NCBI GenBank assembly: GCA_012646185.1 | Contig: GCA_012646185.1_4706.1 | From: a phage | Reading direction: 5' to 3' (one strand) | DNA length: 64,000 nt | Shown: positions 4,761-52,858 of the stretch, piece after piece | Layout of the letters: the number at the start of each line of letters is the position of its first letter | Position numbering within the stretch: the first letter of the stretch is position 1 | Program-made: the position numbers and the translations under genes | The notes under the pieces: generated by a model | Databases searched by the model: none | Seen by the model: only the letters and a program-made list of their open reading frames with translations | Told to the model about the DNA's origin: nothing

Positions 4761-6197
4761 TTACTTTTTCGATGACGCCTTTTCAAGAATCTTGAAAAAG
4801 GTCATACCTATACCGACAACGGCCGCGGTTATGCTCGCAGCGGCTTTCCAAACATCGACGTTACGTTGACGTCGCGCTTCTTCCGCTTCACGTTGTCTTT
4901 TTGCCTCTTCATCACGTCGACGTATCTCAGCAGCAAACTCGTCGTGCTTACGTTTGGCTTCTTCGTCTCGACGACGAAGTTCAGCGACGAATTCTTCATG
5001 TTTGCGTTTAGCCTCGTCATCACGACGTTTTAAATCAGCTTGATAATCTTCGTGTATTTGTTTACGTAGATCATCTTGACGCTTCATTTCGGCTTGGTGT
5101 TGTTCCATCCTACGTTTTTGTTCGTCTTTAAGCTGATCGAGTTCGGCTTTATGTTGTTCATCGCGCAGCTTTGCGTCGGCGCGATGCGCCTCATGCATCT
5201 GTGCGATAACTGCCTTGTGTTCATCCGCCATACGCCGCATTTCAGCCATCACCCCTTTAAGGGTTTCTTCTGATGCCTTACGTTCGTAGCTACGCTGGTC
5301 GAAATCATTTTTGTAGGCTTCTTTTTGGATGGGGTCGCGCCAATGCAATGCCGATTCACGTGTCGGAAAAACATTGTACTTCCACATCTCTTTTTCCAAA
5401 TCTTCGACCGGTACGAAGATGGAGTCATTATTCCCGAAGGTAACCAACATACCTGGCGCGCCTGCTCCATTCGTTGGTTTTATTTCGAACGCTTTCCCCA
5501 GCACGTTAACCCATAAGCTATACGGATTATGAAAGTCGGGTGGCGTCCAATGGATAGTGAGTTGCGTTCCGAGAATCCGGAAACCCTCTGTTTTTCCCGT
5601 CAAGCTCCGCGCGCACGTTGCGATGTAGGGGTGATCAATCCCTTTCGTAACGTGGTCTGCGCTTTTGTATTCTCCTTTAACTTTTACGATTGCCACGTTG
5701 ATTTGCGCGACATAAGCAGGTTGATTAAAGTTCAGCGTGTTGAGGTCAATTTGACATATTTCATCCAGCGTATCGTACCAGTCTTGCTGGTCTAATAGAC
5801 GCGGCATTTTCTCAGCGTTAACAATACGACGGATATGCGGTTTCCTTATCGCGTAACCTGTGCCGTTTTTAACACGGAGTATATCCCGACGTCTACCCGC
5901 GTAGACGAAGTTTCTGAATGCACCATTCGCATTAGATACGTCATGGCTGTCAACTATTACAGGACTACGAAATTTTGAACGTCGTACGATCCTGAATGTA
6001 TTGCCGTCCTCAACCCTACCAGGAATGTACTGGAACATATTGTCGGAGGTGATAACCAACACGGTATGGCCAGATTCATTAATACATGCCCATCCTAATT
6101 CCAGGTCATATAACGGTTCAGCATAACCGTCAATGCGATAAGCGTGCGTACCATCCCACGGTTCGAACGCGGTATCACATATTGGCATGGAGGGCAT
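4761..6197 (-). CDS. tail-anchored membrane protein with globular N-domain and long E/K/R-rich helical repeat region
   Basis: ORF with GGAGG 6 nt upstream of ATG at 6195-6197; C-terminal hydrophobic segment AAASITAAVVGIGMTFFKIL; preceding region is charged 17-aa repeats (RRDEEAKRKH[DE]EF.AE[IL]). Confidence 0.8.
   Translation of the reverse strand: MPSMPICDTAFEPWDGTHAYRIDGYAEPLYDLELGWACINESGHTVLVITSDNMFQYIPGRVEDGNTFRIVRRSKFRSPVIVDSHDVSNANGAFRNFVYAGRRRDILRVKNGTGYAIRKPHIRRIVNAEKMPRLLDQQDWYDTLDEICQIDLNTLNFNQPAYVAQINVAIVKVKGEYKSADHVTKGIDHPYIATCARSLTGKTEGFRILGTQLTIHWTPPDFHNPYSLWVNVLGKAFEIKPTNGAGAPGMLVTFGNNDSIFVPVEDLEKEMWKYNVFPTRESALHWRDPIQKEAYKNDFDQRSYERKASEETLKGVMAEMRRMADEHKAVIAQMHEAHRADAKLRDEQHKAELDQLKDEQKRRMEQHQAEMKRQDDLRKQIHEDYQADLKRRDDEAKRKHEEFVAELRRRDEEAKRKHDEFAAEIRRRDEEAKRQREAEEARRQRNVDVWKAAASITAAVVGIGMTFFKILEKASSKK
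4850..5030. repeat. imperfect about 51-bp tandem repeat inside CDS 4761..6197
   Basis: Two to three adjacent copies of a unit encoding RRDEEAKRKH-EF-AE; visible as repeated cgacgacgaagttcagcgacgaattcttcatgtttgcgtt-like blocks. Confidence 0.6.
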
Positions 6198-6346: not shown

Positions 6347-6405
6347 TCACCTAGGTAATGTAAGCGTCAAATTTTTTCTATTCGCAACAATAAACGGCAT
6401 AGAAA
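6347..6405 (-). promoter_or_regulatory. conserved intergenic element, copy B (promoter or 5' leader candidate)
   Basis: Shares CACCTAGGTAATGTA...GCATAGAA core with copies at 12829..12888 and 51485..51545; lies between the hairpin after the 740-aa gene and the next minus-strand gene. Confidence 0.4.
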
Positions 6406-6435
6406 CCTCCCCCAACCCTTACGGGCTGAGGGAGG
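6406..6435. terminator. GC-rich hairpin downstream of 6535..8757 (intrinsic terminator candidate)
   Basis: CCTCCC...GGGAGG outer stem with inner CCC/GGG stem and 4-nt loop; member of the recurring intergenic hairpin family. Confidence 0.55.
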
Positions 6436-6534
6436 CTGACTTATGTATCACGGTGCCGGATGAATGTCCGGTGCAATGAAACCATCCGCAACGTTGTCGT
6501 CAAGAATATCGTCCAACGAAGCAGCTACGGTAGT

Positions 6535-8757
6535 TCAGTTAGTCTGAACCGGCAGCTTGATGTTTTCAGTGTAGACCTTACGCAGGTTCACAACGTTAAT
6601 CAGACCCAGCAGCGGGCAGTTGTTAACGAAGCGGCAGCGCGGCTGAACCATGGTTTCTTTAGAAACCTGACCGTTACGGGTAACCTGAGCAACAGATACC
6701 AGTTCCGGTACATACAGGAACATACCGAAGGTCAGCGGATCCGGAGAACCCTGGATACCACGAGACAGGGTCACGAAGATCTTATCGCGCAGCATGACGT
6801 TCGGGTTATCTACAACCACGAAGTTGAAGCTTACACCAACGGTACGGAAATCGCCATCGGTCTGCAGGAACTGCGGGATGTAGTTGTCAGTTGCTACTAC
6901 GCAACGCGGTTTCTCATCAGCGTTGGAAGACAGCAGCTGCAGAGCTGGCTGATAACCAGACTCGGAGTACATGCGGTATGCCATCTCACGAATCACGTTC
7001 ATGATCGCAGCAGACACTTCAGCACGACGTTCTGCAGTGGTGGTACCCTGAACAGATTTCTCCAGGTCCAGATTGATTTCTTCGAACCACGGACGGATCA
7101 GGTAACGACCGAAACCTTCGATCTGGATGTCGCCGAACTGACGGAAGCGAGAGGTCGCAACCGCTTTCAGTGCGTCTTTGTAGCTGAACAGTTTCTCAAC
7201 CATCAGGTTGTCGAAACGTGCGTTAGCAGCTTGGATCAGAACGTCCAGGTCAGCAGCGTTTTCTTCCCAATCCAGCGGACGAGGAATGGAGAACGGAGCC
7301 AGCAGGCCGATTGCGTAACGTTCTTGCTTCATGTTGAAGTCAAGGTGCTTACCGCGCTCACGACGGTTGCTGTTGTTACGGCGGATACGCAGTTCGTAAC
7401 CAACCAGTTTGAAGCTCAGGTCTTCAGCCAGCTGTTTGAACTCTTCGCCCTTACGCGGTTGTTCGATGTTGTCACGATCGACCAGACGATACAGTTCAGC
7501 GTTAGCGCCGTTAACACGCAGACCGGCTTTCTCTACGTTGGAAGAACCGTAAACTTCGATTGCCAGCTGAGCAGCGGATTTCGAATCGATGATGTCCTGC
7601 AGCGCTTCAGCTCGTGCACCTTTAACGTCAACGGTGTTCTCATCAACGAAGATGGAGTGGGTGTCGAACGCCAGGGTCATTTTGCGGAAGTCGCCTTCCA
7701 GGGATTTCTGGAAACCGTTGGTGATCAGACCAGATACGTCGAACGGTACGTAAGAGGTTTTGCTGTGCTTGGTAGATTTGATTTCCACCAGGATTTTGGT
7801 CAGCGTGATCTGGGCGTCCAGCGCGTCGGTGTTGTCGCTGTAACCGTTAGCCAGGATGCTATCGTCTTCAGCGATACCGATCATGTCGATCAGTTTATCA
7901 ACAGCCAGGTAAGACGTTTTATAAGTTACGCCTTTAATTTCGATGTCGCGCGGAGCAACGATAGCTTTGTCAACGAAGTACTGTGCGTTAGCATCGTCAG
8001 CACGATAGATCGGATGCAGATCGGTCACGTCGTTGGACAGAACGTCGTTGTACATGAACGCATCCAGCAGCGGACGACGTACCCAATCAGCCGGAGTACC
8101 GTCAGCGTTACGACGCAGGTGGTTGAACACCAGCGGACGACGGAAAGATACGTCGTAACCGATCTGGTTCGGAGCCAGAACGATGGTGTTGTACAGTTCG
8201 TTACCCATGCGGCTCAGACGAGAAGCCTTCACGTTGAACACAACGGAGTACGGCATCATGTCACGCAGTTCTTTCTGGTCGTAGGACAGCTGAACCAGTT
8301 CTTCAGATTCGCAACCGCAGGAATCAGCAGCCATCATGACGAAGTTAGAGCTGTCAACTTCACGGCCAGACGGAGTGGTGCTGATGTTCATGGAACGTGC
8401 TTGTTTAGCATATTCCACCGGGTTACCATGAGCCAGCATGATCAGTGCTGCTGCACGAGCCTGCTGTGCGTTCATGGTGAACAGCTGTTCTTCAATACGC
8501 TGCTTCTCTTCCGGAGTGGTGGTTTCGAAGCCCAGCATGGACAGAACCGGTTCTTCGGCTTTACGGATGTCGCTGCTGAAGCTCTTAACATCCATTTCGT
8601 TAACCAGTTTGTCCATGGATTTGAAATCAACCTTAGAAGCAGATTCCATAGACAGGAAGGTGTTCTCCAGACCTTTGTCTGCTGGTTTGCTACCATTAGC
8701 GGTCAGGAACTGGCGAGTGGCCGCGACCTGTTGGCTAAGAAGGGTTTTATCATTCAT
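6535..8757 (-). CDS. major virion structural protein, tentatively major capsid protein (740 aa)
   Basis: Strongest codon bias in the window (its antisense strand is stop-free for about 2.3 kb, ORF 6460..8760); AAAGGA 8 nt upstream of ATG; followed by hairpin; size fits jumbo-phage capsid proteins but no motif confirms the fold, and a tail sheath protein is an alternative. Confidence 0.45.
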   Translation of the reverse strand: MNDKTLLSQQVAATRQFLTANGSKPADKGLENTFLSMESASKVDFKSMDKLVNEMDVKSFSSDIRKAEEPVLSMLGFETTTPEEKQRIEEQLFTMNAQQARAAALIMLAHGNPVEYAKQARSMNISTTPSGREVDSSNFVMMAADSCGCESEELVQLSYDQKELRDMMPYSVVFNVKASRLSRMGNELYNTIVLAPNQIGYDVSFRRPLVFNHLRRNADGTPADWVRRPLLDAFMYNDVLSNDVTDLHPIYRADDANAQYFVDKAIVAPRDIEIKGVTYKTSYLAVDKLIDMIGIAEDDSILANGYSDNTDALDAQITLTKILVEIKSTKHSKTSYVPFDVSGLITNGFQKSLEGDFRKMTLAFDTHSIFVDENTVDVKGARAEALQDIIDSKSAAQLAIEVYGSSNVEKAGLRVNGANAELYRLVDRDNIEQPRKGEEFKQLAEDLSFKLVGYELRIRRNNSNRRERGKHLDFNMKQERYAIGLLAPFSIPRPLDWEENAADLDVLIQAANARFDNLMVEKLFSYKDALKAVATSRFRQFGDIQIEGFGRYLIRPWFEEINLDLEKSVQGTTTAERRAEVSAAIMNVIREMAYRMYSESGYQPALQLLSSNADEKPRCVVATDNYIPQFLQTDGDFRTVGVSFNFVVVDNPNVMLRDKIFVTLSRGIQGSPDPLTFGMFLYVPELVSVAQVTRNGQVSKETMVQPRCRFVNNCPLLGLINVVNLRKVYTENIKLPVQTN

Positions 8758-8906
8758 TGAAAGTATCCTTTACAGAATTAACTTATATAAGTCGGTCGAT
8801 AGACCATAGCGTACACGCGTGCATGCGCCACTATAGTATCAGTAAACACTTACCGTTATTGAGGTCGTGATACAACACTAAAAATGCCGCATAACTTTTC
8901 CCTACG

Positions 8907-9527
8907 TCACAAACGACGCAGGCGATAATGGATGGAACGATTGGTGCAATATGAACGGAACAGCGGCAATTGCGCAACTTCCGCAAGACTCATATTAATT
9001 CGCAGGTGTTCAATAACGGCGCTGTAGTTATCAGCAATACGATCGCTCAATAACTCTTCTGCCAATAAAGGAAGACAATCGACAACAATCGCGATCACAT
9101 CCTCATTAACATAACGCACCCGAACACTCAGCGGACGTTTGTCTGGGCTGTAAGTTGGATCCGCCAAACGACGTTCAATATCACGCGGATAGCTCGTCAG
9201 TAAATGGTAATAACCATTGTCATAACGATTGATGTACTCACACAGCACATCAACATTCTTCTCTGGCGGCAAACCTGTTTCGTCATAGTGATACGCAAAC
9301 ATACCACCAAGCAGGTTGTTAAGATGAACCGCAGGGTTCGCTTGTTCGTGTTCTTTCGTGATGAAGAAAGGCACGTTCTGGGCTGCGAAATAAAAACCTA
9401 CATCATTGGGCGATAGTATGCCGAAAAGACTTTTAGGGTCTAATAACACCTGTAAGTCATCACGCGCATTTCGAATAATCGCGTGTTCTACCCAATTCGG
9501 AACGACGAGATATCGGAGTTCCTTCAT
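8907..9527 (-). CDS. hypothetical protein (206 aa)
   Basis: ORF with AAGAGGTAA upstream of ATG at 9525-9527; divergent from 9567..11177. Confidence 0.7.
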   Translation of the reverse strand: MKELRYLVVPNWVEHAIIRNARDDLQVLLDPKSLFGILSPNDVGFYFAAQNVPFFITKEHEQANPAVHLNNLLGGMFAYHYDETGLPPEKNVDVLCEYINRYDNGYYHLLTSYPRDIERRLADPTYSPDKRPLSVRVRYVNEDVIAIVVDCLPLLAEELLSDRIADNYSAVIEHLRINMSLAEVAQLPLFRSYCTNRSIHYRLRRL

Positions 9528-11177: not shown

Positions 11178-11203
11178 ACGCAAAAAAAAAAGATTGTGCG
11201 GTT

Positions 11204-11235
11204 CCCTCCTCCAACCCGTAAGGGAAGGAGGAGGG
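11204..11235. terminator. bidirectional hairpin terminator between convergent genes
   Basis: CCCTCCTCC-AA-CCC-GTAA-GGG-AA-GGAGGAGGG; preceded on the plus strand by an A10 run (T10 on the minus strand), the classic intrinsic terminator form for the minus-strand gene. Confidence 0.7.
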
Positions 11236-11251
11236 GTTATGACCGCTTTGA

Positions 11252-12626: not shown

Positions 12627-12828
12627 CGTATTTTACCTTTCTATGTTAGGTGGATTGCGGATAGAAGAATCAATGCATAGATTGATAGTTCTTTGTTAGA
12701 AATTATTGCCGAACCGGTTATGGTTATAACGCGTGTTTTCGTATTCTGACGGGTCGCGTATTAATAAGGCCATGACTGTATCCTCGATTATTAAGAGAAA
12801 TTTACAACGATAACAGTAACCGCTGTTA

Positions 12829-12888
12829 TCACCTAGGTAATGTAGTCGCGAAATAAACTGGAGTAATGCGAAATAAGACAGCATAGAA
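12829..12888 (-). promoter_or_regulatory. conserved intergenic element, copy A (promoter or 5' leader candidate)
   Basis: Nucleotide-level match to copies B and C; immediately adjacent to hairpin 12889..12920; the ORF-track 12696..13097 crosses it but its frame is not conserved between copies. Confidence 0.45.
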
Positions 12889-26890: not shown

Positions 26891-28213
26891 TTACTGCTGT
26901 GCTGCGTCAGCCGGTTTCTCAGCCGCCTGGCCGCCGTACTCTTTCAGCATTTTAGCAACGCCATCCAGGACAGCGTTACCTGCCTGAACACCGTATTTCA
27001 TCAGACCGGTCTGCGGGTTCACATAGCAGGAACGTGCGTCTTTCAGCGCAGACAGTACAGCTTGAACACGCTGTTTTTCCTGAGCGGAAACTTCGCCTTT
27101 CTTAGACAGATCGGCTTCCATATCGTCACCGAATTTAACAGCGTCTTTGAAGCCCTGGGATTTCTTACCGATGTTGCCTTTCAGCGCCAGCAGTTTGTCA
27201 GCCAGTGCTTCAACACCGCTAACCGCAGCAGCCAGCTGGTTCAGGGACAGGACGGTAGCTTCAACTTCTTTTGCTTCGCCGGAGCGTTCCCAGGTTACTT
27301 TACCATCATTGGCTTTGAAACCCCAACCTGCCGGGCCAGCAACGTCAGCAATCGCCGGAGCGTTCAGTTTATCAGCGTACTCGGTGTGAGACTTAGCAAT
27401 AACGGTACCAACGAATTTATCAGCACGATCGTCAGCAGCCTTCATTGCTTTCTCGAAGGTGTCGGCGATTTTGGTCGCGCTGGTAACCAGATCGTCGCCA
27501 CCGGTGTAGCCTGAAACACCGCTACCCAGTTTAACTTTGGTATTTTTAGCAGTGCCTTTACGCTTGGCGATCATTTCTTTCAGTTTAGCAGCACGCGCTT
27601 TCAGTTTGGTCGCGCCGTCGAAGATGCGATCCATGAACTTCACGAAGGTTTCCCAGGAAGTCTTCAGGAAGTTCTTGATGGTTGCCCACAGTTTCTGCCA
27701 CCATTTTTGTTCTTCCAGGAAGATCATGTTGGTTGCATCGTAGCGGGAAGCGGAACCACCGAAGCTTTCGAAGGACGGCATGGTTTCCGGCATTTTGAAA
27801 CCGATAGTACCACACAGACGTTTCAGATTACGCATGTGTTCCTGAGCGGTCTGTGCAGACATACCACCGTCTTTCAGGTAGCTTTCGGTTGCAACAACGG
27901 TTTCCGTCAGTTCATCCATGGCATCATCCATGGCTTCTGCGGTTTCGTCGTCTTTTGCAATTTCGATAACAACAGAATCAACCTGCTCGATATCACCACG
28001 AACTTCGATAGCCAGTTCGGTTTCAGCTGCGGTATCTTCAGCGATTTCAGCACGTTCGGTCAGTTCAGCCACAACGTTTTCATCCGCTGCTGCAGCATCA
28101 GCTGCCGGTTCTGCTTCAACGGTTGCCGCTGCATCCGGATCGATCTCAGCAGCCAGTTGAACCAGCTGTGCGTTAGATGGATTTGCGACAAGACGATCAA
28201 AAATAGAAGGCAT
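26891..28213 (-). CDS. highly expressed paralog-family protein (440 aa), putative abundant internal virion or scaffold-like protein
   Basis: Strong codon bias (antisense frames open: ORFs 27062..27514, 27707..28234); N-terminus MPSIFDRLV and SFESFGG...KLWATI match the family; Ala/Glu/Lys-rich. Confidence 0.8.
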   Translation of the reverse strand: MPSIFDRLVANPSNAQLVQLAAEIDPDAAATVEAEPAADAAAADENVVAELTERAEIAEDTAAETELAIEVRGDIEQVDSVVIEIAKDDETAEAMDDAMDELTETVVATESYLKDGGMSAQTAQEHMRNLKRLCGTIGFKMPETMPSFESFGGSASRYDATNMIFLEEQKWWQKLWATIKNFLKTSWETFVKFMDRIFDGATKLKARAAKLKEMIAKRKGTAKNTKVKLGSGVSGYTGGDDLVTSATKIADTFEKAMKAADDRADKFVGTVIAKSHTEYADKLNAPAIADVAGPAGWGFKANDGKVTWERSGEAKEVEATVLSLNQLAAAVSGVEALADKLLALKGNIGKKSQGFKDAVKFGDDMEADLSKKGEVSAQEKQRVQAVLSALKDARSCYVNPQTGLMKYGVQAGNAVLDGVAKMLKEYGGQAAEKPADAAQQ

Positions 28214-35152: not shown

Positions 35153-38100
35153 TTATCTTACGTTATTGCTGTTCTGCTGTTCGCTGAACCAACCGTACAC
35201 CTTGAGATCGGTACCGTATTTCAATGCGATATACGCATTCAGTGCGGCACAGAACAAAGACGCGAATGCCCATATCAGCGAAGGATCAACATCTTCCGTT
35301 ACCACCGGGAGAGTATTATCCGGTTCCCATGATGGAGAACTGTCCATGAACGTCGTGACCATTACTCGCCGTTGTTCTTCGGTGGTAAAGTCGCTATGAG
35401 GTTCCAACGCTTCTTTTGCCAGACGTCGATATTCGAACATATGCGTTGCTAAAGCCGATGAGTTACCAGATTCGCCTTCATAGTTCGGATCCACCGCATA
35501 ACAGAGTTCTGTTGAATCTAACAAAGCAACCGCCTGTGTGATGCTGTCGGCAGTGCCTGCACCATAGAGTTCGATAGACCGCGAAAGCTTCTCACAGAAC
35601 GCATCCAACGCGGCAGGATTGGACACCTGAAGGTCAAGGCCTAATGTCCACGGATAGTTACTGAATACACCCGTAAACCGCGGCATAACACCCAACAGAT
35701 GTTGTCCGATTACAGCACGGTTATAAACAGCCCGGTTATAGACTTGAAACGCAGCCTCCAAAGCTTGGTTATAATGACGACGAAGTTCGTCACGAGAGTT
35801 GCGGAACCTGTTTGCCGCAAGACTCGTGGCTGCGACGCTACAAACATCGTAATTGGTGGACGAGAGCACAGTTTCGTTAAGATCGAACGCTTCCTGTTTC
35901 AACGATCCGCTAACCGCTGCTGCTTCGCTGTTTGCTTTATCGACAACAGTACTCAAAGCGTTGATGTAACGTTTAGCTCGGACTTCCAGCCATTGTGCGA
36001 TGCCGAGAACATCCACAGCGGCTTTAGCAAGGTCACGCGCGTTCACGATTTCGTTCTTCAAGGCACCCAACCCTTTATTCTCAGGCGAAGAGGCTTGTTG
36101 ACGAATCATGCTGTTTAACATGGTAAGCAGATTATCCAACTCGTGCCCACTGACCTTGTTACGCGCATCGGTAATCGGCCCTTGCAGGAATTTACGGCAA
36201 CCATCGTTGTATCGAATCAGTTTATCCACATCGATAGATTCGTTCGTGGATTCCTTGAACTGATCCTTCAATTCTTCACGGTAGTCATGGATTTCACTTG
36301 CGAGATTATCGATAGTGATACCATCATGTCCAAGAAGAACTTTATTGAAGTTACCTTTCTCGAATGCCAGAGCAAGACCTTCACGAATCTTAGCGAGTTT
36401 ATCCTGATCAAGTTCACGACCGTTCGATAGCTCTTTCACTTCCGAGCTGATTAATGCCGAAACGTTACCCAGATTGTCGGTAACCCCTTTGAACGCTCCC
36501 GACCAGATCGTTCCTGCTTCAGCGTATTTCGCAATGGTCTGAATACCGACGGTGTGCAGCGACGCTAAACGTTTCTTCGTGCCTTCGGTAAGCAGAGCGT
36601 CTTTAGCTCGCGTAAGCTGGCTGTTATTAGCTTCCGCCTGCTGAATCGCTGCTTTCGCACTTCCATTACGCCAGCTCTTAACCAGCCAATCAACCAAACG
36701 TTTTAGGATGTTGACGGTATATTCCATCGTCCGCCGTAACGTTTCCCACGCGCTTTCTGCGGTATAGATGCCGTACCCTTCCATCTTCAACGCTTTCAAG
36801 CTTGTTTGACGTGCCAGCCATTCTACCGTTGCGGAACAAACGTTTACAAAGGCTTCCAGGTAGGTGTAATAGACGTCTGTTGCCGACGTTTCGTTGAACT
36901 TTGAATGCAGATAGAACTGATCGTAAAGTTCGTCGTCATCGCCGAAGGCATCATAGTTCCACAGTTCTGTATCACAACCTGTACCGCAGAAGACGTCAGC
37001 TGTCGTAAACTCTTTAAGCGCTTTAGCTGCATCATTCGTCAGGAATTTACCCGTTTCGACTACATCGTCGACATTAAGCTTGGGGAGTTCGTCGGTGACT
37101 GGCTCTTCCAACATCAGCATATTGAAGAATGTGCTGTACTTGTATCCGAGCCATTTTGGATAACTGCTTTCAGGGATCGTAGACAACGGCTTGATTTTCT
37201 TGGCTTCAGCCAATGTGTCTTTTGCGACCTGATATTGGTTTTCCCCAGCCTTGACGCGACGTAATGCTTTTTCTTCCAACTGCTTAAGCTTGGCATGGCG
37301 TGCTTGTGCTGGAGCTTCAACAAGTTTTTGTACTGACCGCATTGCAGAAATCGCTTCTTTTAATACGATCATCGGCATACGAACTTTGCCGTCGTCGAAA
37401 CTAAGAGCGCGAGCGACACGTTTACTTACGACAGGCTTATCATGGATATTTCGTTCCACCCATGATTTGTTTGCGTAAGTTTGAGCGATCTGCTGTTGGA
37501 TATTTTCAAGGTATTTCCAGCCGTTGGAAGCTTTGTTATCCAGAAGCGGATTCGGTCCCTTCTTATCGAAAAGTTTCAGAATCGGACCAAAGAAACCTTC
37601 CTGTACGAGTTCGATACGCGTGTATCCGTCAGCCGCTTCGATTTCTTCTTGGGTTTTGTCCCAGAGCTGTTCACTACGGACAGCAGTAGCTGTTTCAGAT
37701 ACCGACATAACAAGCTCGGCAACAACTTCAGCACAGGTCAGTACGGTACGCACGCATTGCACTAGCATACGCTGGTAAACGATACGTGCGTTTTGTAGAC
37801 GTGCGATAACCGCTAAATAACCGATATTGTCAAGACGTTCGTCGGCTTGAGCAGAGTCGACACGTTCTATCAGTTGTTTAACCAGCGCGGCTGTTTCCGG
37901 ATAATCGTTCACGACGTCACGCATAATTCGTGATGCGAAAACCGCGGTACCTAAAACGTTAAGAAGTGTTTTACCGTCCCATTCTTTTGGTGTCGCTACC
38001 GATTCGGTAGGGATGAGATTTCCCGCTTGATCGAAGTATGGCATAAGGACATTGATATCCGTAGACGGTACTGCGGTGATTGCGTTGTACTCTTCATCCG

Positions 38101-38758
38101 CACCATCGTTGCCAGACGGCTGTAATGCAAGTGCTTGTTCAAGGATTTTGCGGTCAACAGCATAAAGCGCCGACAGAGCCTGTGTTACCGCAACCAGATC
38201 AACGATCGGCGACCAGAGCTGTGCGAGCTTACCTTCGTATTTCTGTACAGCGATAGCAAGGTCTTCTTTTACGTCAGGATGATTGATTAAACCACCCAGC
38301 GCTTCATGGATTGCAGAAAAACGTTCAGAATGTGCTTGAGTTAATGCAACAAAATCGTCAACGTACGATGCATTTTCTTCAAGGCGTGCAAGTTCCTGCT
38401 CCAGAAGATCTTTTACTTGCGTGGCGGATGCGTTTCTCAGCTGTTCCCCGATAATCGCGATGGCTTTATCGACAACACGACAAGCTTCATTGAAGCCTGT
38501 CGTTGAAGGTAACTCGGTCCATAATGCCAGCGGCTTACCTTCCATTGCGTCAGGAAGGGAATATGACAACATTGCTAGTTGTTGACGTGATACCTGTTTG
38601 TCACGATGTAACGTTTCTTTCAACGCCAGAAGCTCATCAAGACCCACACTGCTAGGGATCGTGGGATGTGATACGGCGTTGATATTTTCTGTCAATGACT
38701 CAAGAACCAATAAACCATTTTCAGCGGAAGATAACCCTGCTTTAAGGTATTTGTTCAT
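35153..38758 (-). CDS. very large helical protein (1201 aa) sharing ELVQEGF motif with 38840..41632
   Basis: Long ORF; ACGGAG 7 nt upstream; internal RIELVQEGFFGPILKLF; hydrophobic C-terminal segment LIWAFASLFCAALNAYIALKY; a tape-measure role is not excluded. Confidence 0.8.
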   Translation of the reverse strand: MNKYLKAGLSSAENGLLVLESLTENINAVSHPTIPSSVGLDELLALKETLHRDKQVSRQQLAMLSYSLPDAMEGKPLALWTELPSTTGFNEACRVVDKAIAIIGEQLRNASATQVKDLLEQELARLEENASYVDDFVALTQAHSERFSAIHEALGGLINHPDVKEDLAIAVQKYEGKLAQLWSPIVDLVAVTQALSALYAVDRKILEQALALQPSGNDGADEEYNAITAVPSTDINVLMPYFDQAGNLIPTESVATPKEWDGKTLLNVLGTAVFASRIMRDVVNDYPETAALVKQLIERVDSAQADERLDNIGYLAVIARLQNARIVYQRMLVQCVRTVLTCAEVVAELVMSVSETATAVRSEQLWDKTQEEIEAADGYTRIELVQEGFFGPILKLFDKKGPNPLLDNKASNGWKYLENIQQQIAQTYANKSWVERNIHDKPVVSKRVARALSFDDGKVRMPMIVLKEAISAMRSVQKLVEAPAQARHAKLKQLEEKALRRVKAGENQYQVAKDTLAEAKKIKPLSTIPESSYPKWLGYKYSTFFNMLMLEEPVTDELPKLNVDDVVETGKFLTNDAAKALKEFTTADVFCGTGCDTELWNYDAFGDDDELYDQFYLHSKFNETSATDVYYTYLEAFVNVCSATVEWLARQTSLKALKMEGYGIYTAESAWETLRRTMEYTVNILKRLVDWLVKSWRNGSAKAAIQQAEANNSQLTRAKDALLTEGTKKRLASLHTVGIQTIAKYAEAGTIWSGAFKGVTDNLGNVSALISSEVKELSNGRELDQDKLAKIREGLALAFEKGNFNKVLLGHDGITIDNLASEIHDYREELKDQFKESTNESIDVDKLIRYNDGCRKFLQGPITDARNKVSGHELDNLLTMLNSMIRQQASSPENKGLGALKNEIVNARDLAKAAVDVLGIAQWLEVRAKRYINALSTVVDKANSEAAAVSGSLKQEAFDLNETVLSSTNYDVCSVAATSLAANRFRNSRDELRRHYNQALEAAFQVYNRAVYNRAVIGQHLLGVMPRFTGVFSNYPWTLGLDLQVSNPAALDAFCEKLSRSIELYGAGTADSITQAVALLDSTELCYAVDPNYEGESGNSSALATHMFEYRRLAKEALEPHSDFTTEEQRRVMVTTFMDSSPSWEPDNTLPVVTEDVDPSLIWAFASLFCAALNAYIALKYGTDLKVYGWFSEQQNSNNVR

Positions 38759-43634: not shown

Positions 43635-45134
43635 ATGAGCGAACAAGAACGAAAACCTAAGAAGAAACTGCTCGGTATTCAATGTCGACACATCAGCTAT
43701 AACGAAGCGAACGACGGCAGCAAGAACGACCTCATGATCGCAAAAGAGATCATGTTCTTTGATGACAATACGCAAGCGACGAACCTTCGCTTCTTTGAGA
43801 ATTACAAACGTCCGTTTTGGGTGACGGTAGAGAGTAAACGTAAGAACAAATATAAAAAGGAAAGCGAGAAGCTCTCGCATGTGCGTCGCTATGATGTCCG
43901 CCAAAGTGAACTGGTTGAAAAGATCAGTTCGGTGCTTTATAAAAGACGTGCTGACGATAACACCCGTTTACAGCAGCTTGCACGGAGTCCATACCTCTAC
44001 GGCACGGACGTTAGCGCCAGCTGTTATTTAAAAACCCAGTACAACACAAAATGGCCGGAATACGTCGATAAATTACCCGCTTCCATTGCCTGTTTCGATA
44101 TCGAAACCGACGTTGTCCATGGACATGGTAAGATCGTTTGTATGTCTATTACAATGGGATACAATGCGATACTTTGCTATACCAAGGACTTCGTTGGTCA
44201 TATTCCGAATGCGATTGAGAAAACCCATGAGAAGATTCGATATTACCTGGCCGAACGTCTGAATACCAAAGAAGATCCTCATGCGTTCGAAAAATATCAG
44301 TACGATGTGCGAATCGTAGAAAGTCCGGCACAAGCAGTCATCCAATGCATGCAGAAGGTTCACGAATGGCAGCCGGATTATCTCCTTGGCTGGAATATCG
44401 CGTTCGATATTCCGCGCATGCTCCAGGCACTGAACGAGGAAGGGTATCGTCCCGAGGATGTTTTCTCCGATCCTCGTGTACCCCCTAAGTATCGTATTGC
44501 TCGCTGGGTACCACCGAAGACCGACAAGGTATCTGCTTCAGGCCGTAAAACCAACCTTACCCTCGAGCAGACCTGGCCGATGTTTTATACGATGGCTACG
44601 TATCAGGTTATGGATGCGATGTGTGGTTATAAGTTCGTTCGTTTAGGAAGACCGGATGAGGGACGCTATTCACTCGATGCGGTGTTAGAGCGTAATAAAT
44701 GCCATACGAAATTAAAAGCGATTCCTGGTACAGAAGGGTTCACGGAGCTCGCCTGGCACGAAGAGATGCAAACGAACCATCAAATCGACTACGGCGTATA
44801 TAACCTTTGGGATAACCAAGGTATTGAGGCGTTGGACCAGAAAACAAAAGACTATTCGATGACCATCCCGATTCGTTTAGCGGCGTCGGATTTGAAAGAT
44901 TTCAGTTCCAACCCTAAACGTATCTGCGATAAACTTTTCTTCGTGTATCTTAACCGTGGGGAAGTCATGGGATGCACCGCCGACGACATGACCCAGGAAG
45001 AAGATAAGTGGGTTATCTCACGAACCGGACATATCGTCACATTACCATGCGATCTCATGGCGGACAACGGCATTCATCTCTTCTGGGATATGCCTAATTT
45101 AAGGAGCTATATTCGATTATTTGTTGCGGATTAA
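43635..45134 (+). CDS. DEDDy 3'-5' exonuclease domain protein, family B DNA polymerase N-terminal-like
   Basis: Exo I ACFDIETD, Exo II LLGWNIAFDIPRML, Exo III GRYSLDAV in canonical order and spacing; no polymerase palm motifs seen downstream. Confidence 0.65.
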   Translation: MSEQERKPKKKLLGIQCRHISYNEANDGSKNDLMIAKEIMFFDDNTQATNLRFFENYKRPFWVTVESKRKNKYKKESEKLSHVRRYDVRQSELVEKISSVLYKRRADDNTRLQQLARSPYLYGTDVSASCYLKTQYNTKWPEYVDKLPASIACFDIETDVVHGHGKIVCMSITMGYNAILCYTKDFVGHIPNAIEKTHEKIRYYLAERLNTKEDPHAFEKYQYDVRIVESPAQAVIQCMQKVHEWQPDYLLGWNIAFDIPRMLQALNEEGYRPEDVFSDPRVPPKYRIARWVPPKTDKVSASGRKTNLTLEQTWPMFYTMATYQVMDAMCGYKFVRLGRPDEGRYSLDAVLERNKCHTKLKAIPGTEGFTELAWHEEMQTNHQIDYGVYNLWDNQGIEALDQKTKDYSMTIPIRLAASDLKDFSSNPKRICDKLFFVYLNRGEVMGCTADDMTQEEDKWVISRTGHIVTLPCDLMADNGIHLFWDMPNLRSYIRLFVAD

Positions 45135-45165
45135 CCTTCGTTCTGTAAAAACTTACCGATATATA

Positions 45166-45211
45166 GAAATTACTGTGAGATACCAAAGGTACTCGTAAGT
45201 TTAGTAATTTC
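45166..45211 (+). other. hairpin (9-bp stem GAAATTACT/AGTAATTTC, 28-nt loop) between exonuclease gene and HNH gene
   Basis: Read directly from sequence; could be a terminator or part of an intron 5' structure. Confidence 0.4.
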
Positions 45212-45227
45212 TGAGCGGTAGGTAAAT

Positions 45228-46364
45228 ATGTTGGAACATCTTGAACATTTAGACAATGAATACTTAAATTTCACCAATCGTCGTTATCGTATCTTCGAAG
45301 ACGGTACACTTTACGATTACAAAGAGAATTGTAAAGTACCTGTTATAATAGAAGATAACAACTCTTACGTTATTATCGATTGGTATCGTGGGGTTGGTAA
45401 ATACGAATTGGGGATGATCATGCTTACAGCATTTGATCGCATCCACATTCCTAACTATCTTTACGATGAAATTGAATCGTTGTTTATTGATAACGACCCG
45501 ACGAACTTTTCGTATAGTAACCACATCTATCGTTTCCGTAATGGACCGCTGGCTGTGGAAGGGTATCCGGGATATTACTACATCCCGTTTGCCACGTACT
45601 ATGCGCTAAATGAACAAGGTGAATGTTTAAGTCTTTTGTCTGGGGAAGGTATAACGTGGACAATGACGCAGCAAAACGGTACGCGGCGTCCCGGCTATCG
45701 ATACAGAAAGGTAACACCTGATAGCGGTTTTACGGCTCAGCTGTATCGTCATCGAGCGATGATGTTGACGTTTCGTCGTTACGACGCAAGCGTTGTGGAA
45801 ATGACCGTTAATCACAAGAACGGTATTAAAGGCGATGATTGGCTGGATAACCTGGAATGGGCAACCTACAAGGAAAACAACAATCATGCGCGTATAAACG
45901 GTTTATGTGACGGCAAAGCGAAACCTATCAAGATCTTTGATTATAATCGTCATACCGAACGTCATTTCAAGAGCATCGCTGAGGCGGAACGTGCGTATCC
46001 ACACGTAGCAAAAGGACGTTTCAAATGGTGGGTTGAAAATCCACCGAAACGTATACCTGAATGTAACCTCTACATCAAACATGCGTTCGATAATACTCCG
46101 TGGCCTGAATGGAAACTGGGTGATGAACGACGTATTGAAGATGTAGCGGGTATTCCGATTATCGCCCTTAACATGGTTACAGGCGAGAAACGAGTGTATT
46201 CATCGGTTACAGCTGCGGGTAAGGATACGAAAACAAGTTGGATAACAGTACGACGTCACTGTGATAAGCGTGTCGTTCCTGTTAAACAAGCATGGTGTTT
46301 CCGTTATGCTGACGACGTCAAAAACATGCCTGAGTTAACTTCCCTACCAACAATCGAACAGTAA
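45228..46364 (+). CDS. HNH homing endonuclease
   Basis: HNH signature TVNHKNGIKGDDWLDNLEWATYKENNNHA; C-terminal repeated DNA-binding-like modules (SIAEAERAYPHVAKGRFKWW, SVTAAGKDTKTSWITVRR); gene visibly more AT-rich than its surroundings. Confidence 0.85.
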   Translation: MLEHLEHLDNEYLNFTNRRYRIFEDGTLYDYKENCKVPVIIEDNNSYVIIDWYRGVGKYELGMIMLTAFDRIHIPNYLYDEIESLFIDNDPTNFSYSNHIYRFRNGPLAVEGYPGYYYIPFATYYALNEQGECLSLLSGEGITWTMTQQNGTRRPGYRYRKVTPDSGFTAQLYRHRAMMLTFRRYDASVVEMTVNHKNGIKGDDWLDNLEWATYKENNNHARINGLCDGKAKPIKIFDYNRHTERHFKSIAEAERAYPHVAKGRFKWWVENPPKRIPECNLYIKHAFDNTPWPEWKLGDERRIEDVAGIPIIALNMVTGEKRVYSSVTAAGKDTKTSWITVRRHCDKRVVPVKQAWCFRYADDVKNMPELTSLPTIEQ

Positions 46365-47091: not shown

Positions 47092-47141
47092 TTCAAGTAG
47101 GTTGATCCTCGTTTAACAAAAAAGAAAACACATGCGAAGCT

Positions 47142-47169
47142 CCTCCCCCTGGCGGAAGCCGGAGGGAGG
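47142..47169. terminator. hairpin with GGAA tetraloop
   Basis: CCTCCCCCTGGC-GGAA-GCCGGAGGGAGG, 11 of 12 pairs; downstream of 47178..47663. Confidence 0.6.
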
Positions 47170-47177
47170 GGTGAGGT

Positions 47178-47663
47178 TTATGCGCGTTCGTTACCAACCG
47201 TTACTTTGTAGTCAGCGTCGGTTAAGAATATAGACAGGAATCCATGTTCTTTGCAAATCTGACTAAGGATGTCAGCAATGATTTCGTTGATCATCGGCTT
47301 GTTTGCAAGGGCATAGATGTACCCGGGTGTAAAAGAAAGTGCGTGATTGATCATAGGCTCATGAGAAGCCAAGATAAGGATCACGTGATGCTTCCCATCG
47401 TCGGTAACGACCGCTTGCGTAGACACGAAGAAATCAGTGAAGCAGCAGCGATCACAGGCTTTAGGTATATACAAGTCACCCAGAGCTTCGTTACGTGCTT
47501 TTACGTGTGTTTCAGGGGTGATGCTGCTAAGTTGATCTTCAGCGAGATCCAAGACATCCTCAATCGTTTTAAGAATAGCGTTGCGGAAATCCTCACGGTA
47601 GAATGGGATGATATCACGATCGTTCATGTAATCGCCGGATTCGATAGTAAAGTTGATGTTCAT
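47178..47663 (-). CDS. small hypothetical protein (161 aa), accessory island
   Basis: ORF with AGGAG 6 nt upstream. Confidence 0.7.
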   Translation of the reverse strand: MNINFTIESGDYMNDRDIIPFYREDFRNAILKTIEDVLDLAEDQLSSITPETHVKARNEALGDLYIPKACDRCCFTDFFVSTQAVVTDDGKHHVILILASHEPMINHALSFTPGYIYALANKPMINEIIADILSQICKEHGFLSIFLTDADYKVTVGNERA

Positions 47664-47773
47664 TGAATGCTCCTAGTGGTTATGTCGATTGATTGATGTA
47701 TTGATTTATGTTTGATGGGGTATACTTGAAACTACAAATAAGGCTCTTGGCGTTGCTGTTATGGTTCAGTTCT

Positions 47774-48226
47774 TTATCCCTTGTTGGATTCGTCAATATA
47801 CTTGGTGTCGTAAGACAAATGCTGAATTAATTTTCTAGGTCTGATGAATATACGACATGTGATAAACACATCAGGATTGTATTGTTCCACGCAACGTCCG
47901 AAGGCTCGTTTTGCGGCGTGACGCATCAACACTAATTCCCGATCGTTCATCTCATCATCAAATTCGATGTGTATCGTGATTTTATCGGGAAATAAATAGA
48001 TAGAGTAATCGCCACCAATACCGCCGTCGTCAAAACGATAATCGTTGTGGTAATGGTGAAGTTTACCTTCGTGTATCGTCTGGTACCACCCGACGTTACT
48101 ATCAAGGCCCATACCCAGGCGTCCGAATGCCTGATTAATAATATCTTCGACGACGGATGCGGGTGTGGGGCCATTGAACAATCTATCCAGACGTTTTTTC
48201 ATCGATTTGTCGTTTTTCATGTTCAT
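47774..48226 (-). CDS. small hypothetical protein (150 aa), accessory island
   Basis: ORF between hairpin 48255..48290 and the 47664..47773 spacer. Confidence 0.65.
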   Translation of the reverse strand: MNMKNDKSMKKRLDRLFNGPTPASVVEDIINQAFGRLGMGLDSNVGWYQTIHEGKLHHYHNDYRFDDGGIGGDYSIYLFPDKITIHIEFDDEMNDRELVLMRHAAKRAFGRCVEQYNPDVFITCRIFIRPRKLIQHLSYDTKYIDESNKG

Positions 48227-48254
48227 TGTTTCTTTTCCTGTGTAGTCGGTATAC

Positions 48255-48290
48255 AGCCCTTCCCCGGCCTTGGTGGCTAGGGAAGGGGCT
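48255..48290. terminator. GC-rich hairpin
   Basis: AGCCCTTCCCC...GGGAAGGGGCT. Confidence 0.5.
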
Positions 48291-48301
48291 ATGCTACGTT
48301 G

Positions 48302-48700
48302 TTATGCTTCGCAATCAGCTGAAGGCGTCGCGCCTTTCTTACCGGCGATACGCCAAATCCGACACGCTGGGTAATGGTTAACCTCTAGAGAGCAAGGAAT
48401 GTTATATTTCTCTTCCAGCGCATAAAGACATTTCGTTAGCTGCTCCAGCGCGTTCTCGTCGTGTCGTAACGCGTGGTGGCCTAATCGATGTTGGTCGTTC
48501 TTTATATACGCCTCGAAGAGAACATGTTGGCGATGTACGCTGACGTTTACAGCCTCGAGTATAGCTTGGTCGAGCATACGACTAAAGCACATCAACGAGT
48601 CAGATACGTTTTCTCGCTTAACCAGATCGATCATGGCGGGAATATACGAATGGTCGATGTTATCGATGACCGCTTTAGCGACGGAATCAGCAACGTTCAT
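48302..48700 (-). CDS. small hypothetical protein (132 aa), tandem paralog of 48736..49131
   Basis: Shared blocks VKAV.DNIDH...MID..K.E, EKYNIP.SLEVN..PA with its neighbour. Confidence 0.7.
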   Translation of the reverse strand: MNVADSVAKAVIDNIDHSYIPAMIDLVKRENVSDSLMCFSRMLDQAILEAVNVSVHRQHVLFEAYIKNDQHRLGHHALRHDENALEQLTKCLYALEEKYNIPCSLEVNHYPACRIWRIAGKKGATPSADCEA

Positions 48701-48735
48701 CTTTTAATCCCTAGTTTGTTATTGATCACGTATAT

Positions 48736-49131
48736 TTACTCTTTGACGTCAGTTGTCGTTTCGACATGCTTCTCACTACTGACGTACCAGAGCAGGTACG
48801 CTGGGAAAAGATTGACCTCTAAGCTAAATGGGATATTGTATTTCTCTTCCATTTTACAGAGATGTTCTTTAAGTAAATTTCTCGCGTCTCTGTCACCACG
48901 AACAGAGTGCCAGTCTAGTTCTTTGTTCTCCTTTACCAGGACCTCTACGATGATACGTTGCTCGTGAACCTCGGTTTTCACAGTGAAAAGTAAATCGCTG
49001 CTATCAAAACGGGTAAAACGAATGTATGAACCAGGTGTTTTTTCTTGTTTAATAATATCGATCATGGTAGAAATGCGCGGATGATCGATGTTGTCGTTAA
49101 CAGCTTTAACGATGGATTCTACAATGCTCAT
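48736..49131 (-). CDS. small hypothetical protein (131 aa), tandem paralog of 48302..48700
   Basis: See paralog; ATGA overlap with the upstream micro-ORF. Confidence 0.7.
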   Translation of the reverse strand: MSIVESIVKAVNDNIDHPRISTMIDIIKQEKTPGSYIRFTRFDSSDLLFTVKTEVHEQRIIVEVLVKENKELDWHSVRGDRDARNLLKEHLCKMEEKYNIPFSLEVNLFPAYLLWYVSSEKHVETTTDVKE

Positions 49132-49226
49132 TTTTTATCCTTAATGTTATCGATATTGACGAGTTCATCAATACGGCACTGTTGGTTGAATTCGATTAAT
49201 CGTTGAACTTTATCTTTGATAGACAT
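49128..49226 (-). CDS. candidate micro-ORF (32 aa, MSIKDKVQRLIEFNQQCRIDELVNIDNIKDKK)
   Basis: Not in the ORF track (below 60 aa); starts 2 nt after the stop of 49229..49687 and ends in an ATGA overlap with 48736..49131. Confidence 0.3.
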   Translation of the reverse strand: MSIKDKVQRLIEFNQQCRIDELVNIDNIKDKK

Positions 49227-49228
49227 GA

Positions 49229-49687
49229 TTACCCATTAGCTCCTTCTTCGTCTGGAGAGTACTCCATTGTGTAGAATTCATAACCATCGGAAAACTTGAG
49301 TGTTAATGTAATAGGGAAATCGCACGGCGTAGCTGATTTCGTAAATGCGTTATTAGCAACATCTGCCAACCGACGTATAGCATCAGTCCCGCTGACGCTG
49401 AATGGTAGTTGTATGTTGATAAGGATACGATGCTTGTAAACATAGAAAACAACGGTACTGTCAAGATAGACGCTATGGAACGGTATTGTTGGGATGCGTT
49501 CCACGATGGTAAAATACGTCCCGTCATTATCGCTATGTCCCACCGACCAAATATCGGATTTGCGTAGATTTTGTTTGAGAGATTCGATGCTTCGAGTGAC
49601 GGTATCAGCAACAGGCGTGACGTAAGCGTCTTTATGCGAGTCGAAAAGTTCGTTGACGTTAGATTCGAATGAAAACGTTGTTGCCAT
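49229..49687 (-). CDS. small hypothetical protein (152 aa), paralog of 49753..50253
   Basis: C-terminal similarity ITLTLKFSDGYEFYTMEYSPDEE versus VILTINGHDGSGLFEFHYDPDNE. Confidence 0.7.
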   Translation of the reverse strand: MATTFSFESNVNELFDSHKDAYVTPVADTVTRSIESLKQNLRKSDIWSVGHSDNDGTYFTIVERIPTIPFHSVYLDSTVVFYVYKHRILINIQLPFSVSGTDAIRRLADVANNAFTKSATPCDFPITLTLKFSDGYEFYTMEYSPDEEGANG

Positions 49688-49752
49688 TTTCTACCTCAAT
49701 GGTTTAACCGATACGTGCCCCACCTAACAAGGGACACGTTATCGTTGATTAA

Positions 49753-50253
49753 TTACTCTTCTGTGTTTTCATTGTCGGGATCGTAGTGGAATTCGAACAG
49801 CCCTGAACCGTCGTGCCCGTTGATTGTTAGTATAACGGGCATATCGAATCCTCGGACACGCGAATGAAAACACTGTGCTAATTTGAGTTTGGCGTATGCC
49901 GCTATTTCATTGACAGCAATACACGATTCACCTGTTATACTCAGTATAACGTCGATACTAACAATGTTGTCGTGCAACGCAAAACGCCAGCGATCGATAC
50001 GATTATTATCTTTATCGGTTGTCTCGTTTACGAGATAGACTTTATCGTCAACCGACAAAGCGGGACTCCAGCAACGATCGTTTATTAAATTCGCCTGGAG
50101 TTTTAGTATCGTCTGATCGATAATATCCCAACACGTAACCAGCGTGGTGTCAGGCACTGAGTAGAGAAGGGCGTGCACTTTATCCTTTATTTTAAGTGCT
50201 TCCGCAGGACGTCCGCAAATACCATGCATTTCAACTTTCTTATTCATATTCAC
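49753..50253 (-). CDS. small hypothetical protein (166 aa), paralog of 49229..49687
   Basis: See paralog. Confidence 0.7.
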   Translation of the reverse strand: MNMNKKVEMHGICGRPAEALKIKDKVHALLYSVPDTTLVTCWDIIDQTILKLQANLINDRCWSPALSVDDKVYLVNETTDKDNNRIDRWRFALHDNIVSIDVILSITGESCIAVNEIAAYAKLKLAQCFHSRVRGFDMPVILTINGHDGSGLFEFHYDPDNENTEE

Positions 50254-50290
50254 TTCTTTCTTAATCTAAATGTTAGTTGGGGTGGAATGC

Positions 50291-50923
50291 TTACATGCTT
50301 TCTAACATATCGATGATCATGGAACCCATACCGAAACTCGGTCTTTCACCGATGTACTCAGCAAGCTGGCGATGGACGTCTTTTGGATTTCCTTCTTCAC
50401 CATCGGCATCGATGTAGACCGAAAAAGAAAATGAATCGGAATCCACGCTGATAACCAGACGACGTTCATTGCGTTCCTTGAGCGTGTCGACGATAGCTGC
50501 TTTCAGTACTGCGATCGCGTTCATCGCGTGCAAGATATCTCCATCGGGTTTCGGCAGATCGATCTTTTCTTTCAGGTCGATATTGATGTTGGTTACAATT
50601 GGGTTGAGGTCGACCTTGACGTAATCGTTAGGGTACATGCGAATAATCGCACGATCGATATCTGAACCGTAAAAGTCAACACGTGGCTTTAACACTTCTT
50701 TGTTTGGATCCATGTTTTCATCCATACCCGCCTGCAAGAAACGTTCTACGTTATCCAGTTCACGATAAACTGACGCTTCGATTTCTTTCAGATAGTTGGC
50801 TGCGGTTTCATGTTCTTTACGCAGCTCGTCTTTAAGGAGCTGTACGGTGACTTCACTGGAACGAATGCTGTTCGCGAATTGGGTAATTGACATATCGAAT
50901 TCCTTAAATTCTCTTGAGTTCAA
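50291..50923 (-). CDS. hypothetical protein (210 aa)
   Basis: ORF; no motif. Confidence 0.7.
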   Translation of the reverse strand: MNSREFKEFDMSITQFANSIRSSEVTVQLLKDELRKEHETAANYLKEIEASVYRELDNVERFLQAGMDENMDPNKEVLKPRVDFYGSDIDRAIIRMYPNDYVKVDLNPIVTNINIDLKEKIDLPKPDGDILHAMNAIAVLKAAIVDTLKERNERRLVISVDSDSFSFSVYIDADGEEGNPKDVHRQLAEYIGERPSFGMGSMIIDMLESM

Positions 50924-50991
50924 TTAATGATGAAAAGCTGTAAAAAAAGGTGGGGCGAACCCCACCAAAACGTCAGACACACGCAGGAAAA

Positions 50992-51417: not shown

Positions 51418-51484
51418 CTTGACATCCTTTTATATTGGATTGGTTGCAATTGTCTTAAATAGATGATAAGATATTTTGCTCTTA

Positions 51485-51545
51485 TCACTAAGGTAATGTA
51501 GTCGTGAAATAAACTGCGTTAACACGAAATAAAAACAGCATAGAA
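51485..51545 (-). promoter_or_regulatory. conserved intergenic element, copy C (promoter or 5' leader candidate)
   Basis: TCACTAAGGTAATGTAGTCGTGAAATAAACTG...ACAGCATAGAA; a 1-nt indel relative to copy A breaks any shared reading frame. Confidence 0.45.
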
Positions 51546-51585
51546 CCCTCCTCCCACATCCTTCAAGAGGACGGTGGGAAGAGGG
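51546..51585. terminator. long GC-rich hairpin
   Basis: CCCTCCTCCCAC...GTGGGAAGAGGG, 11 of 12 pairs, plus an inner stem. Confidence 0.55.
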
Positions 51586-51590
51586 AGAGA

Positions 51591-52833: not shown

Positions 52834-52858
52834 GTTTATTTCCTTTCATTTAACAAGG

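Follow-up and report, generated by a model that had tools for sequence, protein, structure and literature searches.

The 740-residue protein of a Goslar-like jumbo phage is almost certainly its major capsid protein, encoded by a gene that ends at a putative phiKZ-type terminator

The 740-residue protein encoded on the minus strand near the start of a 64,000-nt stretch of phage DNA (the window; NCBI GenBank assembly GCA_012646185.1, contig GCA_012646185.1_4706.1) forms, with near certainty, the head shell of a nucleus-forming jumbo phage similar to Goslar, as its major capsid protein. The initial annotation of this DNA had treated the identity of the protein as an open question, but public structures and the literature have already settled it: the identity, structure and role of this major capsid protein (MCP) have been described, and what is new here is only a closely related genome. 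Four independent lines of evidence, from Pfam, PHROG, tblastn and PDB searches, agree on the assignment, and nothing that we found contradicts it. The gene is as follows:

6535..8757, minus strand: MCP gene, ortholog of Goslar gp41; 740 codons plus stop, ATG start, from the open reading frame listing

The Pfam family PF25620 (Bacteriophage PhiKZ major capsid protein gp120, PhiKZ_MCP) matches residues 98-731 with E=4.5e-216 and a score of 719.3 bits against a cut-off of 27, covering positions 2-635 of the 635 in the profile, and the Pfam search of the protein returned no other significant family. PHROG 3231, ‘major head protein’, matches residues 26-737 (E=1.1e-162). A tblastn search against 50,697 phage records gave 226 matches, the best of which was HOV27_gp041, the ‘major head protein’ of Escherichia phage vB_EcoM_Goslar, with 99.1% identity over 100% of the query. 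A further 224 more distant matches, all below 60% identity, come from jumbo phages of Pseudomonas, Erwinia, Salmonella, Ralstonia and others, and many of these carry a major capsid or major head protein annotation. In the PDB, the protein matches at E=0 the entries 11bt, 11fg, 11mk and 11ml (full length) and 36za (residues 158-740), all named ‘Major capsid protein’; identity to 11bt is 99.1% over 740 of 740 residues. The major head protein of PhiKp24 (8bfl, E=8e-62) and phiKZ gp120 (8y6v, E=3e-55) follow, so that the significant PDB sequence matches (E≤3.4e-55) are to capsid proteins only. The suggestion in the initial annotation of a jumbo-phage capsid protein with an N-terminal propeptide thus holds for a full-length PF25620 member that is 99.1% identical to Goslar gp41.

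Cryo-EM of the Goslar virion has shown that gp41 is the MCP and adopts the canonical HK97 fold, with an N-arm, P, A and I domains and a C-terminal arm, that the T=27 capsid contains 27 MCP copies per asymmetric unit and 1,615 per capsid, and that the N-terminal 157 residues of gp41 are unseen in the virion, in which the protein was also detected by mass spectrometry (2026 preprint, 10.64898/2026.04.21.720040). Through the 99.1% identity to these solved Goslar chains, an HK97 fold with an insertion domain and a place in the capsid hexons and pentons can be predicted for the window protein. The fold assignment rests on the solved structure of this 99%-identical ortholog because a single-sequence AlphaFold2 model, built with no alignment, was uninformative (mean pLDDT 30.2, pTM 0.19).

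Goslar gp41 (YP_009820726.1) has the same length as the window protein, 740 aa, and differs from it by seven substitutions (31 nucleotide differences at the level of the gene). Two of these, T73S and L74M, fall in the propeptide, and the other five, K376V, K382R, A392S, Q428R and S437G, lie between residues 376 and 437 in a surface-exposed region of the I domain of the mature part. All four of the residues that form inter-hexon hydrogen bonds in Goslar, Y403, S405, R414 and E421 (10.64898/2026.04.21.720040), are conserved in the window MCP.

phiKZ gp120 (PDB 8Y6V), the founder of PF25620, is homologous over residues 56-731 of the window MCP (E=3e-55). Both it and the Goslar-type MCP have T=27 geometry and an HK97 fold that includes an I domain, and the propeptide of about 160 residues that phiKZ gp120 loses has a predicted counterpart in the window MCP that ends at the aligned position, although sequence identity is only about 26%. 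The major head protein of Klebsiella phage PhiKp24 (PDB 8BFL/8BFP) is homologous over residues 188-737 (E=8e-62); its deposited chain lacks the N-terminal arm and propeptide, and its sequence is distant from that of the window MCP. With HK97 gp5, the prototype of the fold, the Goslar-type MCP has in common the core fold, made up of the N-arm and the P and A domains, and the predicted removal of an N-terminal segment by a prohead protease, but no sequence similarity is detectable, and the Goslar-type protein is about twice as long, carries the I domain in place of the HK97 E-loop and builds a T=27 rather than a T=7 shell. Covalent cross-linking as in HK97 has no evidence in its favour for the Goslar-type MCP.

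The protein can be divided into two parts by comparison with the Goslar structures:

8287..8757, minus strand: predicted N-terminal propeptide, codons 1-157; PDB 36za starts at residue 158, and this part is absent from the mature Goslar capsid
6538..8286, minus strand: mature MCP with predicted HK97 fold, codons 158-740; same length as the modelled Goslar chain and 99% identical to it

In phiKZ, the head protease cuts gp120 between Glu163 and Asn164 (PMC11297242). The HMMER alignment places phiKZ N164 on S158 of the window MCP, which is also the first modelled residue in Goslar, so that the position of the propeptide boundary is conserved. Glu precedes the cut made by the related phiKZ and SPN3US proteases, the latter of which prefers Ser at P1’. 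At the aligned position, phiKZ has GLE|N with Glu at P1, whereas the window MCP has VQL|S with Leu157 at P1; Glu residues occur 4 and 7 positions upstream. Candidate sites with Glu at P1 would be G148-C149-E150|S151 and S151-E152-E153|L154. Cleavage at E150 or E153 would leave 4-7 disordered residues before S158. Searched alone against the PDB, the propeptide gave no match except Goslar itself.

The rest of the window supports the same placement. It runs collinear with Goslar from position 36871 to about 99218, a stretch that corresponds to the gp37-gp90 interval, and nucleotide identity to Goslar is 96.8% over positions 1-25000, 93.7% with 84% coverage over 25001-50000, and 96.5% over 50001-64000. 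IMG/VR holds two further genomes of the Goslar lineage. In the MCP region, the window is identical neither to Goslar nor to either of the IMG/VR relatives (about 96.8-98.6% identity). The window thus adds to the lineage a fourth genome that is distinct from the other three, and belongs with Goslar, its close relative, in the genus Goslarvirus of the Chimalliviridae. The MCP gene has the same neighbours in both phages, namely the homologs of gp40 and gp42, the second of which lies upstream:

8907..9527, minus strand: Goslar gp42 homolog, upstream neighbour of the MCP gene; 98.6% nucleotide identity to Goslar gp42

Goslar gp42 is an inner-capsid protein of the vertex-binding complex and has been equated with phiKZ gp119 (10.64898/2026.04.21.720040). 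Its position upstream of the MCP gene therefore means that the phiKZ gp119-gp120 gene order has been kept.

We examined codon usage in a set of 54 window genes, obtained by mapping Goslar genes onto the window and adding the output of a small codon-model gene finder. The MCP gene has the lowest effective number of codons of the set (Nc 30.1, with a range of 39-61 in 52 other window genes) and, by scaled chi-square, lies farthest from pooled usage (0.546). E. coli-preferred codons make up a fraction (Fop) of 0.87 in it, where the window median is 0.56, with preferred codons taken from the lists of Ikemura and of Sharp and Li. Leucine is encoded by CTG in 96% of cases and phenylalanine by TTC in 100%, while TTA, CTA and TCA are not used at all. 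These values bear out the earlier claim that the codon bias of this gene is the strongest in the window. The further claim that its product is the dominant late product stands only in part. The MCP would be one of two dominant products, and not the sole one, because a second gene is virtually tied with it in codon bias (Nc 30.2, Fop 0.84) and its Goslar ortholog is estimated at about 2,150 copies per virion, compared with 1,615 for the MCP:

26891..28213: internal head protein gene, Goslar gp58 homolog, matched by PF12699

The estimate of about 2,150 copies of gp58 per Goslar virion would account for a codon bias in its homolog equal to that of the MCP gene.

A 766-aa open reading frame on the plus strand (6460..8760), antisense to the MCP gene and in the same codon register, was considered as a gene and rejected as an artefact. 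The antisense frame is free of stop codons because the MCP gene uses no TTA, CTA or TCA.

Two other readings of the gene were weighed. A contractile tail sheath protein, which the initial annotation had offered as the alternative, would fit the length of 740 aa and the high-expression signal, since sheath proteins are also high-copy late products. This reading is nevertheless vanishingly improbable. The profile HMM comparison that the initial annotation had proposed for deciding between capsid and sheath returned the capsid families PF25620 and PHROG 3231, and no sheath family was found for the protein in Pfam (E≤1) or PHROGs (E≤0.01). A chain modelled in capsid hexons and pentons shares 99% sequence identity with the protein, whose gene lies between the gp40 and gp42 homologs, with no tail tube gene adjacent. 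The Goslar sheath is a separate gene product, gp218, and both it and the tube protein gp217 (10.64898/2026.04.21.720040) are encoded outside the gp37-gp90 interval that the window covers; none of the other large window proteins matches a sheath family over its length.

The protein might instead be another abundant part of the head (a scaffold, a decoration protein, or an internal head or ejection protein), a reading in keeping with the very abundant internal proteins that chimalliviruses package. The gp58 homolog in the window illustrates the point: its codon bias equals that of the MCP gene, and its Goslar ortholog is estimated at more copies per virion than the MCP. The internal-head-protein family PF12699, however, matches the gene at 26891..28213 and not the MCP open reading frame, which excludes an internal head protein as the reading of that frame. 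The MCP open reading frame instead matches the MCP family end to end as well as a solved shell subunit, so that the broader class of other head components, too, is very unlikely, if marginally less so than a sheath. Identification of the protein as the MCP is thus the reading that we retain.

The MCP gene is preceded by a short intergenic region:

8758..8906, minus strand: upstream spacer of 149 nt with putative late promoter(s), 5’UTR and ribosome-binding site; conserved

This spacer is 100% identical to that of Goslar, as is the terminator hairpin described below. Among the four Goslar-lineage genomes, only 1 of its 149 columns is variable, compared with 9.7% variation at third codon positions in the MCP gene (binomial P ~4e-6), and the spacer between the terminator hairpin and the next gene has 9.1% variable columns in the same four genomes. 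The upstream spacer is thus under constraint. It contains an AAAGGA Shine-Dalgarno-like box at 8771-8766, 8 nt 5’ of the ATG. A sigma-70 promoter scan of 8758..8906 found no sigma-70-like site, as would be expected because phiKZ-like phages transcribe their genomes with their own RNA polymerases (PMC4666361; PMC12809450). Three promoters in a row serve the MCP gene in phiKZ and 201phi2-1 (PMC11512511), and TATG, with its G as position +1, is all that defines a phiKZ late promoter (PMC4666361; PMC12809450); the non-virion RNA polymerase of phiKZ recognises this tetranucleotide via its beta-like subunit on the non-template strand. Two TATG boxes occur in the spacer, at 8893-8890 and 8808-8805, but the tetranucleotide is too short and too frequent (319 occurrences in the window on both strands, or about 0.25% of 128,000 positions) to count as evidence alone. 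A start at the 8808-8805 box would give a 48-nt leader. The 9-mer TGTAAAGGA lies just upstream of the MCP start, and its only other copy in the window precedes the gp58 homolog. Across the upstream regions of the window, no k-mer of at least 9 nt was common to at least three regions, and TTATGCG, with 16 matches in the window versus 10.4 expected, yielded no extended promoter consensus. The probable promoter region proposed earlier for this gene is therefore plausible in that the spacer is constrained, but neither a sigma-70 site nor a shared motif accompanies it.

Downstream of the gene lies a strong hairpin:

6394..6437, minus strand: putative intrinsic terminator of phiKZ type; 15-bp hairpin at 6404-6437, then TC and TATGCCGT (6394-6401)

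RNA folding places the start of the hairpin 98 nt 3’ of the MCP stop codon and shows it to be followed by UUUCUAUGCCGU. The hairpin RNA reads AGCCUCCCUCAGCCC-GUAA-GGGUUGGGGGAGGUU, then UC-UAUGCCGU; its fold energy is -29.7 kcal/mol, and folding of the 155-nt 3’ region gives z = -3.6. A simple consensus terminator scan missed the hairpin at 6404..6437, since its tail departs from a plain run of T, and a search of the whole window against Rfam at gathering thresholds gave no match. None of the 44 columns of the hairpin and box varies among four Goslar-lineage genomes, of which the IMG/VR relatives are too close (97-99% identical) for covariation to support the hairpin.

The same hairpin-box design recurs at no fewer than 10 intergenic sites in the window, the MCP element included, and the fold energies range from -18 to -30 kcal/mol. 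It consists of a stem that is pyrimidine-rich and then purine-rich, an inner CCC/GGG clamp, a T-rich spacer and TATG-YY-G(T). Hairpin folding linked TATG boxes to stems at these positions:

6401, 12885, 18191, 24127, 26833, 51542, 52043 and 62663, minus strand: hairpin-linked TATG
35146 and 58261, plus strand: hairpin-linked TATG

In phiKZ, 61 terminators have been mapped experimentally and share the motif 5’-BCCYCCCCHWWDGGGRRGGBYTTATKYYGT-3’ (PMC10914365), which is also carried by 201phi2-1 (PMC11512511). The window elements resemble it in having a C/T-rich and then G/A-rich hairpin, T-rich sequence and TATG-YY-GT; they differ from it in their longer stems, of 14-15 bp with the inner GGG/CCC clamp, and in a stem-to-TATG spacing that varies by 1-3 nt. 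On this likeness, the element 3’ of the MCP gene is a putative Goslar-lineage form of the known phiKZ-type terminator. That a terminator brackets the gene, as had been noted from the sequence, is supported by the 15-bp hairpin, an architecture that matches the phiKZ motif and the invariance of all 44 nt.

TATG follows most strong intergenic hairpins in the window within a few bases. The TATG after the terminator hairpins is the same tetranucleotide as that of the phiKZ late promoter. TATGNYGT alone is not enriched in the window (20 observed versus 17.7 expected), so that the TATG signal consists only in its co-occurrence with hairpins, and no other shared motif stands out. At three convergent gene pairs, TATG follows the hairpin on five of the six strands, where no downstream gene is present, which favours a role in termination over one in initiation. 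We regard as speculative, and on balance unlikely, the idea that the hairpin-TATG elements act through polymerase-recognition termination (a consensus-induced pause) or as coupled terminator/re-initiation modules through which the capsid gene reaches a very high, insulated output.

Judged from its homologs Goslar gp41 and phiKZ gp120, the MCP would be made late in infection, in very large amounts, as a 740-residue precursor. Transcription would presumably start in the conserved spacer, at a promoter and by a non-virion RNA polymerase of the phage that we infer from phiKZ-like relatives, and would end at the phiKZ-type hairpin terminator 98 nt past the stop codon. High output would be supported by the extreme adaptation to E. 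coli-preferred codons and by the Shine-Dalgarno-like box. The precursor would assemble as hexamers and pentamers into a T=27 icosahedral prohead of 1,615 copies, from which the prohead protease of the phage would remove the propeptide of about 157 residues. The mature 583 residues, with the HK97 fold and the extra insertion (I) domain, would then form a head shell of about 147 nm.

With the 740-residue protein assigned as the MCP, the classification of this phage is fixed: it belongs to the Goslar lineage of nucleus-forming jumbo phages, with a capsid of HK97 fold and T=27 geometry. The assignment also makes the neighbouring genes readable by synteny with Goslar and phiKZ, among them those for proteins of the vertex-binding complex, internal head proteins and RNA polymerase subunits.

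A hairpin element recurs between genes in the window, in which a C/T-rich and then G/A-rich hairpin of 9-15 bp is followed by a T-rich spacer and the sequence TATG-YY-GT. Its copies, and hairpins related to it, lie at the following positions:

6401, 12885, 18191, 24127, 26833, 51542, 52043 and 62663, minus strand, TATG boxes of the hairpin element
35146 and 58261, plus strand, TATG boxes of the hairpin element
11203-11236, 47139-47172 and 48253-48292, related hairpins

The element is similar to the conserved terminator motif of phiKZ (PMC10914365), and its TATG box is the same tetranucleotide as the phiKZ late promoter (PMC4666361). Convergent gene pairs occur at three places (11.2, 35.1 and 58.2 kb); there a TATG box follows the hairpin on five of the six strands, with no gene downstream of it. 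Several copies also carry a CATA 5' of the stem that is able to pair with TATG.

Two gene predictions call for comment:

12696..12884, minus strand, counterpart of Goslar gp047, a 62-aa hypothetical gene
6460..8760, plus strand, 766-aa ORF antisense to the major capsid protein gene and longer than it

The annotated ATG start of Goslar gp047 is the ATG within the terminator-associated TATGCTG box at 12885, and this gene call is therefore doubtful. The antisense ORF shares the codon register of the capsid gene and is free of stops only because the capsid gene lacks TTA, CTA and TCA codons; a gene caller that selects the longest ORF would choose the wrong strand here.

Observations were also made on another head protein gene and on the downstream neighbour of the capsid gene:

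26891..28213, minus strand, homolog of Goslar gp58 (phiKZ internal head protein, Pfam PF12699)
4761..6197, minus strand, homolog of Goslar gp40, 478 aa

With Nc 30.2 and Fop 0.84, the gp58 homolog is on par with the capsid gene in codon bias, and both genes have the 9-mer TGTAAAGGA in their translation-initiation regions. Goslar virions are estimated to contain ~2,150 copies of gp58 (preprint 10.64898/2026.04.21.720040). The gp40 homolog had no match in Pfam or PHROG. Its sequence closes with three highly charged repeats that are nearly identical to one another (RRDEEAKRKHEEF-like) and then a hydrophobic C-terminal segment resembling a membrane anchor. The spacer separating it from the capsid gene is 337 nt long, and local sequence variability is highest in its portion beyond the terminator, where 9.1% of columns vary.

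Further features, some of them differing from Goslar, lie in the following regions:

47178..50247, minus strand, run of small genes of 131-164 aa each
43635..46364, plus strand, DNA polymerase fragment (499 aa), then a NUMOD1/HNH homing-endonuclease-like gene
35153..38758, minus strand, gp64 homolog, 1,201 aa
38840..41632, gp65 homolog, a vertex-binding-complex protein, adjoining the gp64 homolog

The small-gene run, which has two members more than the matching Goslar interval (gp70-gp73), sits inside a 25-kb query (25001-50000) with megablast coverage of just 84%; its genes may be small paralogs that form a variable cassette. The homing-endonuclease-like gene that follows the polymerase fragment, an arrangement matching Goslar gp68-gp69, suggests that the polymerase gene has been interrupted by a mobile element. 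Goslar gp64 is 930 aa long, shorter than the homolog in the window; the two proteins are 98% identical over the C-terminal 544 residues and just 48% identical over the N-terminal 392, and residues 393-657 (~265) of the homolog have no counterpart in Goslar. The gp65 homolog has likewise diverged (only 84% identity). The gp64 region is a mosaic segment, probably recombinant, in a genome that is otherwise 94-97% identical to that of Goslar.
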